In this document: piece after piece, positions 26,371 through 28,161 of the stretch
Layout of the letters: the number at the start of each line of letters is the position of its first letter
How positions within the stretch are numbered: position 1 is the first letter of the stretch
Sequence record: PQ511147.1
Reading direction: 5' to 3' (one strand)
DNA: 44,039 nucleotides
Source: Escherichia phage NHEP3
Made by a program: the position numbers and the translations under genes
The notes under the pieces: model-generated
What the model was told of the DNA's origin: nothing
Database searches by the model: none
What the model saw: the letters and a program-made list of their open reading frames with translations, nothing else

Positions 26371-28161
26371 ATGGCGGCGGGTACACTATCCGTAACGAAT
26401 AACAGCAAGGCGGTAGTCGGTGTCGGCACGACGTTCACCGCGTTTAAAGATGGCGACTTCTTAACGCTGGTGGTGGGGCAAGTCCCTTACACTGTTGCTA
26501 TCGCGTCCGTCGAAAGCGACACCGCGCTTACGCTGGTGCTGCCGTTCGACGGCCCAACGGCAACCGGCCTGGCATGGGATGGCGTTGCGCGCGATACCAT
26601 GTCACTGGCGACGATGGGCGTTACCGTACAGGCACAGAAAGCATTGCGCTTGATGATTGCGGATGAAAACAACTGGCGTGCAATCTTCGGCGACGCGGAA
26701 GAAATCACGGTAACTCTACCAAACGGGCAAGTTATGCAGGGTATGTCGTGGGGCTATCTGTCATCCTTGATGAAGCAAGTTGACCCCGTTGAAATGCGCG
26801 ACCTGCAACAAAAAACCCGCGAGTCTGAGTTAGCCACGTGGCATTATCGGCAGGAGGTCGAAGGCTTCAAGACCGAGACGGCAGGCATCCGCGACGCCAC
26901 TAACCAAATTAAGACGGAGACGCAGGCGATCCGCGATGCCACTAATACCATCAAGACGCAGACGGACCAGATTAAGACGGATACGCAGGCCATCAAGGAC
27001 CAGACGAACCAGATTAAGGCGGATACGCAGGCTATCCACGACGCCACCAATATTATCAAGACGCAGACGGACCAGATTAAGACTGATACGCAGGCCATCA
27101 AGGACCAGACTGAGCAGATTAAGACTGACACTGGCGTTATTCGCGACGAGGCTGAACAATTCAAGAATGAGATCGACCCGTCGAGATTTCTGGCAAAAGC
27201 CAGCAACCTTAGTGACGTTTCTGATGTTGCGGAAGCACGCACCAATCTTGATCTCGACCGCTTCAAGCAGTCTACCAATGACACCACAATTTTAGGACCT
27301 GGTGGCGCGTACACATTCTTCGTGGCGTCTAGCGACTGGGGTTACTTTAACAGCTCAACATTTGAACGCGTGGCGTTACCTGTTCAGAGTGGCGGCACAG
27401 GTGGCACTACAACATTTACGGCGTGTCGTAGTCTCCGTGCAATGAACTACGACCACACTATCAACACACTTTACGCTTCGCCGGAACTTGACACGGGCAT
27501 TGGCTTTTATAGCGCTGATGTGTCACAGTGGCCCGGCGGCAACGGTGGTCCTTACACCTACGCCGAGATTATGACAATTGCCGAGGGTGGCGGCGGCCCT
27601 GGCAGTTCAGGTAACTGGTCACAAATTGGTTTTTCAACTATAACAAATCAAGCCCCGCGCTATCGGCAACGTACGTCCAACCCAGCGCTTATCACTAACT
27701 GGCGGGATTTCTTAATTCGTGACCTAAACACCACTGTCGACAGCAACGGTTTTATCAAAGTCGCGTCACCTATTGTGAAAATCAAAGGCGACGGATCCGC
27801 AGAGTTTAACGACGAGTCCGAGGGTTGCTCGGTAACACGGGTGTCCAAAGGTGTTTATGTCATATCGGGTTGCCTGGGCCTCAATTCCGACGCGTCCTGG
27901 GGTGGGGTCAATGGCGGCTTTGAGATACCGGTGGACGTAAACAAGCAACCTTTGTTGTGGCTGGATTATGCGGTATTGAATGATGGTAGTATTGAGATTC
28001 GCACTTACCATCGAACGCATACTAACGCGCCTGCGTTCGCGAGAAATATTATCGATGGTATCGAAGACGGCGACCCGGTAGATATTCCACCGAGCACCTA
28101 CATTTCGGTCCGTGTGCAAATGCCCGCAACAGGATTGGAAACAGCCACGAGTAGTGCGTAG
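26371..28161 (+). CDS. tail fiber protein with a coiled-coil repeat region
   Basis: GAGGA Shine-Dalgarno before the ATG at 26371 (ORF opens at 26344); tail-fiber-type N-terminus MAAGTLSVTNNSKAVVGVGTTF; about 8 tandem 11-residue repeats (QIKTDTQAIKD-like). Confidence 0.75.
   Translation: MAAGTLSVTNNSKAVVGVGTTFTAFKDGDFLTLVVGQVPYTVAIASVESDTALTLVLPFDGPTATGLAWDGVARDTMSLATMGVTVQAQKALRLMIADENNWRAIFGDAEEITVTLPNGQVMQGMSWGYLSSLMKQVDPVEMRDLQQKTRESELATWHYRQEVEGFKTETAGIRDATNQIKTETQAIRDATNTIKTQTDQIKTDTQAIKDQTNQIKADTQAIHDATNIIKTQTDQIKTDTQAIKDQTEQIKTDTGVIRDEAEQFKNEIDPSRFLAKASNLSDVSDVAEARTNLDLDRFKQSTNDTTILGPGGAYTFFVASSDWGYFNSSTFERVALPVQSGGTGGTTTFTACRSLRAMNYDHTINTLYASPELDTGIGFYSADVSQWPGGNGGPYTYAEIMTIAEGGGGPGSSGNWSQIGFSTITNQAPRYRQRTSNPALITNWRDFLIRDLNTTVDSNGFIKVASPIVKIKGDGSAEFNDESEGCSVTRVSKGVYVISGCLGLNSDASWGGVNGGFEIPVDVNKQPLLWLDYAVLNDGSIEIRTYHRTHTNAPAFARNIIDGIEDGDPVDIPPSTYISVRVQMPATGLETATSSA
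26870..27150 (+). repeat. tandem 33-bp repeats, in frame within the tail fiber gene
   Basis: Repeated cagattaagac(g/t)ga(t/c)acgcaggc(c/t)atc... units encoding hendecad repeats. Confidence 0.7.

Follow-up and report, generated by a model that had tools for sequence, protein, structure and literature searches.

A heptad-repeat shaft, probably a trimeric coiled coil, in the lateral tail fibre of Escherichia phage NHEP3

The stretch of DNA analysed here (the window; 44,039 bp, PQ511147.1) is essentially the whole genome of Escherichia phage NHEP3, a Dhillonvirus-type (HK578-like) E. coli siphovirus, and its first 25 kb align with 158 phage records at ~92% identity, with 98–100% of the query covered. 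The lateral (side) tail fibre gene (Table 1), which itself also matches Dhillonviruses in nucleotide comparison, lies downstream of a gpJ-like central fibre ORF, a small lipoprotein-like ORF and two small plus-strand ORFs. This is the position of a Dhillonvirus lateral tail fibre gene in a genome of ~44 kb. The order of gpJ, RBP locus, small lipoprotein gene and fibre gene is the same in phages NJ01 and RuthEpting, and the BASEL papers report the same arrangement of receptor-binding and lateral-tail-fibre loci for the Dhillonvirus genus. In the list of open reading frames the fibre ORF starts at ATG 26344 (26344–28161, plus strand; 605 aa). Translation very probably begins at ATG 26371 instead, since a GAGGA at 26359–26363 stands before it with a 7-nt spacer and relatives are annotated from MAAGTLS.

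The initial annotation had recognised a tail fibre gene, and this identification was confirmed by matches to PHROG tail-fibre families (PHROGs 1980 and 1591; E = 1e-83 to 1e-92 for the gene, with a phrog_1980 match to the fibre at E = 6e-83), by a 197-bit Phage_tail_C_2 match and by the annotation of relatives. The N-terminal domain, which is presumed to attach the fibre to the tail tip, has 105 homologues (best E = 1e-136), and nearly invariant alignment columns fall in aa 1–130. AF2 predicted aa 1–70 to be beta-rich (pLDDT ~90), and aa 1–72 (residues 10–81 of the 605-aa ORF) weakly matched PDB 23gd_B, “distal tail protein gp20” (E = 2e-4). At the other end of the shaft, the motif SRFLAKASNLSDVSDVAEARTNLDL matched the short tail fibre gp92 (PDB 9zd7, E = 5.6e-6), where it stands in six tandem copies. 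The tip belongs to Phage_tail_C_2, scoring 197.4 bits (gathering threshold 27) over profile positions 1–133 of 133, and matched the tail fibre of coliphage SU10 (PDB 7z47_D) at E = 1.3e-58.

Table 1. Features of the NHEP3 lateral tail fibre locus (positions in the window).
Feature	Position	Strand	Basis or remark
gpJ-like central fibre ORF	21620–25039		Upstream of side fibre gene
Small lipoprotein-like ORF	26072–26290	-	Upstream of side fibre gene
Lateral (side) tail fibre gene	26371–28161	+	596 aa + stop; tail-fibre PHROGs, annotated relatives
N-terminal anchor domain (presumed), aa 1–138	26371–26784	+	Conserved across genus
Single continuous alpha-helix (predicted), aa 139–267	26785–27171	+	129 residues, ~19 nm; AF2, 3.5-residue hydrophobic periodicity
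Tandem array of 16 in-frame 21-bp units (heptads)	26845–27180	+	Translation read in sevens
105-bp (5-heptad) duplication, copy 1	26908–27012	+	Tandem Repeats Finder (TRF) period 105, 2.1 copies, 88% matches
105-bp (5-heptad) duplication, copy 2	27013–27117	+	Duplication also in phage NJ01
Post-shaft motif SRFLAKASNLSDVSDVAEARTNLDL	27181–27255	+	Common tail-fibre linker motif; starts distal part
C-terminal tip domain, Phage_tail_C_2 (PF25670)	27727–28128	+	Pfam, PDB 7z47_D

Between these two ends, the gene carries a tandem array whose translation reads as consecutive heptads of the pattern I-K/R-T/D-x-T-x-x: YRQEVEG, FKTETAG, IRDATNQ, IKTETQA, IRDATNT, IKTQTDQ, IKTDTQA and IKDQTNQ (units 1–8), followed by IKADTQA, IHDATNI, IKTQTDQ, IKTDTQA, IKDQTEQ, IKTDTGV, IRDEAEQ and FKNEIDP (units 9–16). 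Position 1 is Ile, Phe or Tyr and position 2 is Lys, Arg or His in 16/16 units, position 5 is Thr in 13/16, and position 4 is variable (Glu in five units, Gln in four, Asp in four, Ala in three). Fourteen of the 16 units fit a strict I/F-K/R-x-x-T, and units with the strict Ile/Thr core occupy 26866–27159. DNA self-identity at lags of 21, 42, 63, 84 and 105 was 0.42, 0.60, 0.54, 0.46 and 0.70, values reached by 0–1 of 2000 codon shuffles, and protein self-identity at lags of 7, 14, 21, 28 and 35 residues gave z = 8.0, 14.7, 10.6, 7.2 and 14.9 (2000 codon shuffles). TRF reported periods of 42, 63 and 105 bp. The longest of these reflects a duplication of five heptads, whose two copies are 88.6% identical and differ at 12 positions, in five synonymous and five non-synonymous codons. 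Codon sharing between units (0.486) did not exceed the 0.501 predicted from codon usage in the tract, and there is thus no sign of very recent amplification or homogenisation. Three further ORFs overlap the tract (26830–27159 and 26844–27314 on the minus strand, 26936–27295 on the plus strand); their translations (LNLVRLRLDG..., RRRTRLRRIRR...) are low-complexity mirror images of the array, and we rejected them as genes and treated them as by-products of a stop-free repeat.

The protein has the features of a canonical heptad (7/2) coiled coil, namely a 7-residue periodicity, a continuous predicted helix, an a/d core flanked by e/g charges and, among relatives, length changes by whole heptads. 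AF2, run with a 75-sequence alignment, drew aa 139–267 as one unbroken helix between beta-rich N-terminal and C-terminal domains, with mean pLDDT of 87–97 per 10-residue block over aa 151–260; the model is a monomer with a pTM of 0.31, and AF2 tends to draw a long isolated helix for any helical repeat. The hydrophobicity spectrum of the helix has one sharp maximum, at a period of 3.5 residues (power 135), with powers of 2–5 across periods of 3.0, 3.6, 3.67 and 4.0 (3.9 at 3.6 and 5.0 at 3.67). In the best register, position a would be Thr (15/18), d Ile (13/18), e Lys or Arg (15/19) and g Glu, Asp, Gln or Ala, and the 18 g-to-e' pairs include nine attractive and no repulsive ones. Trimers are favoured when both core positions hold beta-branched residues. 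Threonine at a is documented in trimers, where the hydroxyls point toward the axis and can coordinate ions (PMC13580157).

A search of the PDB with the helix alone (phmmer) returned no significant match to a solved coiled coil (best E = 0.097). Almost all of the weak best matches were to trimeric coiled-coil fibres or adhesins (NadA, LINE-1 ORF1p, T7 gp17, reovirus sigma-1, langerin and SadA). Foldseek, given the whole-chain AF2 model, found nothing in the PDB at E ≤ 0.001 and only small beta-domain noise such as Uba1; this result is uninformative because the model is multi-domain with a pTM of 0.31. The oligomeric state can be approached through homologues: the SU10 tip is present as 12 chains in four PDB entries (three per entry), most relatives that share the N-terminal domain and the coil end in a trimerising Peptidase_S74 chaperone domain (PF13884), and a trimer model exists for the RuthEpting fibre. 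On these grounds the tract most likely forms part of a parallel homotrimeric coiled coil.

The length of the shaft was also compared among related phages. The 105 homologues of the N-terminal half have between 0 and 11 heptads of the Ile/Thr type, compared with 15–16 in NHEP3. We measured the distance from a near-invariant MSWGYLS to the NLxD that follows the shaft in 74 proteins, using broadened anchors (stricter motifs had measured 24 and then 37). In 68 of the 74, this distance differs from that of NHEP3 by an exact multiple of seven, and the remaining six have no shaft at all. The in-phase distances span 56–154 residues with a mode of 140 (42/74), shafts where present comprise 6–20 whole heptads, and the longest are those of NHEP3 and NJ01 (154 residues between anchors, 20 heptads). 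Heptad phase is kept even where the heptads are unrelated Ala-rich sequences, which points to a structural constraint, the need to keep the register unbroken, rather than to slippage by units alone. Aligned as DNA, A144 and RuthEpting are separated from NHEP3 by clean gaps of 21 nt; A144, the closest relative, is one heptad shorter than NHEP3. The shaft is not essential, since cultured phages without one exist (for example, phage jat).

Shaft length varies independently of the type of distal tip. When the distal parts were clustered, the tip cluster of NHEP3 was found on shafts of 0, 6, 18, 19 and 20 heptads, and 18 heptads, the commonest length, occurs across many tip types. Most Dhillonvirus matches to the fibre gene stop at gene nucleotides 675–897 (counted from 26344), that is, inside the tract or up to ~60 nt beyond its end, and BASEL likewise describes a similarity that drops after the 5' end of the gene. 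Hence, the conserved anchor and coil appear as the constant part of the gene, onto which different tips have been recombined.

The closest described counterpart is gp29 of phage RuthEpting (Bas85), which is also encoded downstream of gpJ and the RBP locus. Its N-terminal domain (aa 1–138) is 93% identical to that of NHEP3, identity over aa 268–596 is 38%, and its shaft of Ile/Thr heptads is homologous and keeps the same phase. This protein was published with “elongated N-terminal coiled coils” (PMC11990801); given the homology, the NHEP3 tract belongs to the coiled-coil shaft of a fibre family that has already been described. The two fibres differ at the tip, which is T5-like with an S74 chaperone in RuthEpting and Phage_tail_C_2 in NHEP3, and in the number of heptads between anchors (18 versus 20). 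NHEP3 exceeds RuthEpting, and the modal fibre, by only two heptads because it carries the 5-heptad duplication (~5 nm) and lacks three Ala-rich heptads.

More distant systems share parts of this layout. The T7 fibre gp17 consists of an N-terminal tail-binding domain of ~140–150 aa, a trimeric coiled-coil rod of ~100–130 aa and a distal, beta-rich receptor-binding part, and the NHEP3 fibre likewise has an anchor domain, a coiled-coil rod and a distal binding part. In contrast to this likeness of plan, gp17 is a podovirus fibre and that of NHEP3 a siphovirus side fibre, the helix match between them is not significant (E = 0.49), and the T7 N-terminal domain PF03906 has no match in the NHEP3 fibre at E ≤ 1, which places the latter outside the T7 tail fibre family. 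The SU10 (Kuravirus) tail fibre (7z47 chain D) is homologous over 137 residues of the tip only; the SU10 protein has 786 aa and a different proximal part, and it showed no match to the heptad tract. Trimeric autotransporter adhesins such as NadA and SadA, whose cores have N@d and T@a layers, resemble the NHEP3 shaft: they too are trimeric fibrous stalks of great length in which much of the core is polar. They differ in that their polar residues (Asn) are concentrated at d, whereas those of NHEP3 (Thr) would be at a; we found no significant homology to them, and their ion-binding N@d motif is absent from the NHEP3 tract. When the 112-residue tract was searched against 1.84 billion representative sequences, 250 proteins matched at E ≤ 0.001. 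Many of these matches are compositional (proline-rich VPYDTRP-type repeats, eukaryote-like HEPN_DZIP3 proteins) and were set aside. A subset are phage fibres with real I-x-x-D/E-T-x-x heptad arrays; one of them (P0160) has a T7-type N-terminal domain (PF03906), then eight I/L-K-x-D/E-T-x-x heptads, then an S74 chaperone domain.

Taking these lines together, we consider it highly likely that the tract is the central part of a canonical heptad, parallel trimeric coiled-coil shaft of a Dhillonvirus lateral tail fibre. This differs from the reading of the initial annotation, which had described about eight 33-bp repeats encoding QIKTDTQAIKD-like hendecads, an arrangement (11/3) whose trimeric coiled coil would be almost straight or right-handed. 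The in-frame repeat it placed at 26870–27150 is really there and is non-random, and the peptide occurs twice, its 11 residues being part of a double heptad of 14 and not the repeat unit itself. DNA self-identity at lag 33 is also marginally over background (0.353–0.374 depending on the span, against a codon-shuffle mean of 0.337). That value (0.35) corresponds to z = 0.6 and was reached by 582 of 2000 codon shuffles, lag 66 gave z = -2.3, TRF reported no 33-bp period in the tract, and protein lags of 11, 22 and 33 gave z = -1.5, -2.7 and -1.2 (2000 codon shuffles). The helix has a hydrophobic power of 5 at the 3.67 residues of a hendecad against 135 at 3.5, and the length differences among relatives are all multiples of 7 and none of 11. 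Neither a 33-bp/11-residue period nor a 3.67-residue hydrophobic repeat was thus found; the hendecad description is refuted, we give it practically no chance, and the count of eight is merely 281 bp divided by 33, where 16 units are present. Because the units are heptads, the hendecad geometry has to be dropped, while the predicted helix, the coiled-coil pattern and the most likely trimeric state of the shaft stand. The initial annotation had also stated that repeat number can vary and alter fibre length, and among related phages it does vary and change the length of the shaft; it had cautioned as well that such tracts tend to collapse in short-read assemblies. Tandem repeats can indeed be mis-assembled, and A144 differs by one heptad. 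For NHEP3, an artefactual count, collapsed or expanded, with a 16-unit structure and a 105-bp duplication that are not real, nevertheless seems very unlikely to us: the units are imperfect, and the longest exact match within the tract reaches 29 bp, less than the length of usual reads and k-mers. Twelve differences separate the two 105-bp copies, unlike an assembly duplication, and reading frame and heptad phase are intact. NJ01, assembled independently and ~93% identical, agrees with NHEP3 both in the number of units and in the duplication. The copy number of NHEP3 can probably be trusted.

Two other readings accept the heptad period and concern its structure. The same trimer could be built in another register, with Ile at a, the position-4 residue (Asp, Glu, Gln or Ala) at d and Thr at e, which would resemble the I-x-x-N-T of trimeric autotransporter adhesins, with polar d-layers coordinating ions or water on the axis. 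The phmmer alignment pairs the tract Ile with the a-position Val/Ile of NadA and its D-T with N-T, I-x-x-D-T-x-x heptads are strongly conserved in related phage proteins, and Asn at d followed by Thr at e is documented in adhesins (PMC13580157). The Thr-at-a register itself has the drawback that a core made half of polar Thr would lower stability. The Ile-at-a register appears improbable all the same because position 4 varies and is frequently acidic, in contrast to the Thr of position 5; burial of nine acidic layers would be costly, and Thr at a with Ile at d yields the classic pattern of basic e and acidic g positions with zero repulsive pairs. More remote still is a tract that is not a coiled coil at all, and we regard as highly improbable both a triple beta-helix or beta-spiral with 7-residue repeats and a stable single alpha-helix. 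Heptad-like repeats do occur in some phage triple beta-helices, Ile and Thr are both beta-branched, and the I-x-T-x-T alternation of some units could suit strands. Only half of the units have this alternation, the AF2 helix reaches pLDDT above 90, the in-phase heptads that flank the array in relatives are rich in Ala, Glu and Gln, typical helix formers, and the E/K/R-rich composition of a single alpha-helix is absent from the tract. The homologue, too, has been modelled as a trimer with a coiled coil (PMC11990801).

For the heptad coiled coil with Thr at a and Ile at d, a plausible picture of the fibre is as follows. The conserved N-terminal domain would hold three chains to the tail, and aa 139–267 would wind into a rigid rod of ~19 nm (129 residues × 0.148 nm) whose core alternates Thr layers (a) and Ile layers (d). 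The Lys/Arg of e and the Asp/Glu/Gln/Ala of g would border this core and may form inter-helix salt bridges. The rod may serve to keep an exchangeable distal receptor-binding part, composed of the NLSD linker motif, a middle region and the Phage_tail_C_2 tip, away from the tail. The distal part would then engage O-antigen, a surface glycan, ahead of porin binding by the central fibre, as the Dhillonvirus lateral fibre is thought to do so that the central fibre reaches the porin (BASEL; PMC11990801). Slippage or unequal recombination among the similar 21-bp units could add or remove whole heptads, ~1 nm each, with the register unbroken, and the conserved 5' part of the gene, repeats included, may act as a homology patch for the swapping of distal tips.

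The finding has little importance beyond a correct annotation, which is that of a heptad (21-bp) coiled-coil shaft and not a hendecad one; with a copy number that is probably real, the gene needs no mis-assembly flag. The proposed core of Thr at a and Ile at d would be unusually regular, a mild curiosity for coiled-coil structural biology. We hold more tentatively, and think it rather doubtful as a whole, that the half-polar-core trimer, a recurrent and unnamed fibre-rod module and a spacer adjusted by copy number (0–20) are all realised together. If so, ~15 consecutive Thr a-layers would alternate with Ile d-layers, forming a column of hydroxyls along the axis, in which water or ions could be held, the Ile/Thr heptad module would stand behind both Dhillonvirus-type and T7-type anchors, and the shaft would be a spacer of freely adjustable length, matched independently of the tip to how deep the host glycan layer is. 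For the Dhillonviruses themselves, the repeats mark the junction at which side-fibre tips are exchanged, which may be useful for engineering chimeric fibres, and the natural variants with 0, 6, 18, 19 and 20 heptads on one tip offer a ready series for asking whether the length of the side fibre matters to infection of O-antigen-bearing hosts.

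The distal tip domain of the lateral tail fiber aligns with the tail fiber tip of coliphage SU10 (PDB 7z47_D, E = 1.3e-58), with identical residues at most aligned positions. SU10 is a podovirus, whereas the window's protein is the side fiber of a siphovirus, yet their tips are very close; judged from this alignment, the likeness is an example of tip exchange across phage morphotypes. At the opposite end, residues 1–72 (numbered from the ATG at 26371) resemble the N-terminus of PDB 23gd_B (E = 2e-4), a 199-aa protein deposited under the name "Distal tail protein gp20", and the first ~70 residues also match phrog_9922, "minor tail protein". 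These matches suggest that all three have in common a small beta-domain, which would dock to the tail tip.

Heptads of the type found in the fiber shaft also occur in P0107, P0162, and P0134, three proteins matched by the shaft's heptad tract, each carrying 10–22 near-perfect I-K-x-D-T-S-Q-type units. A domain scan of P0107 and P0162 placed a HEPN_DZIP3 domain at the N-terminus of both. The context of these Ile/Thr heptads is unrelated to that of the phage fiber, and they are probably convergent.

Two further kinds of repeat are present in the window (table below). The octamer AGCGGGAC occurs 12 times against 1.5 expected, always on the + strand, and its two ~150-bp blocks are nearly identical, with the layout ...TAAGCGGGACAAAAAGCGGGACA...GGCGGGACAAAGCGGGACAGCACCCC...GGGACAGCGGGACAGCACCCCAGTCTTTCAGACTAGA. 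They look like a duplicated regulatory array, in which a promoter or terminator accompanies sites for an operator or activator, and each copy appears to lie ahead of a transcription unit, two units in all. The second kind is a 54-bp unit repeated in tandem, in 2.1 copies with 84% matches; it adjoins CTTCGT/TCG runs and probably encodes a Ser/Asp/Glu-rich low-complexity repeat.

Repeats, fiber domains, and genes located in the window
Feature	Position	Strand	Remark
Fiber N-terminus	26371-26586	+	aa 1-72
Fiber tip domain	27727-28128	+	
Octamer cluster 1	15960-16110	+	
Octamer cluster 2	43440-43610	+	
Octamer, single copies	13236, 15910, 25727	+	
54-bp tandem repeat	36823-37015	-	coding region
ORF	25077-25379	+	100 aa
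ORF	25382-26053	+	223 aa
Lipoprotein-like ORF	26072-26290	-	lipobox MKTLIMICAVLLAGC

The two closest relatives of the fiber gene were deposited under non-Escherichia hosts, as "Acinetobacter phage NJ01" (OQ221563) and "Campylobacter phage A144" (MG065648, UNVERIFIED). Yet their classification places both in Dhillonvirus, and coliphages make up nearly all of the remaining matching records. Their host labels look doubtful, and the two are possibly contaminant phages.

The interval between the gpJ-like central fiber gene and the lateral fiber gene (25077-26290) is the variable "bona fide RBP locus", whose lipoprotein is of the superinfection-exclusion type. Where the window has two + strand ORFs and the - strand lipoprotein-like ORF, NJ01 and the Dhillonvirus RuthEpting carry a 966-bp - strand gene and the small lipoprotein gene. 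Because the content of this locus differs, the porin specificity of the window's phage is probably also different from that of NJ01 and RuthEpting.
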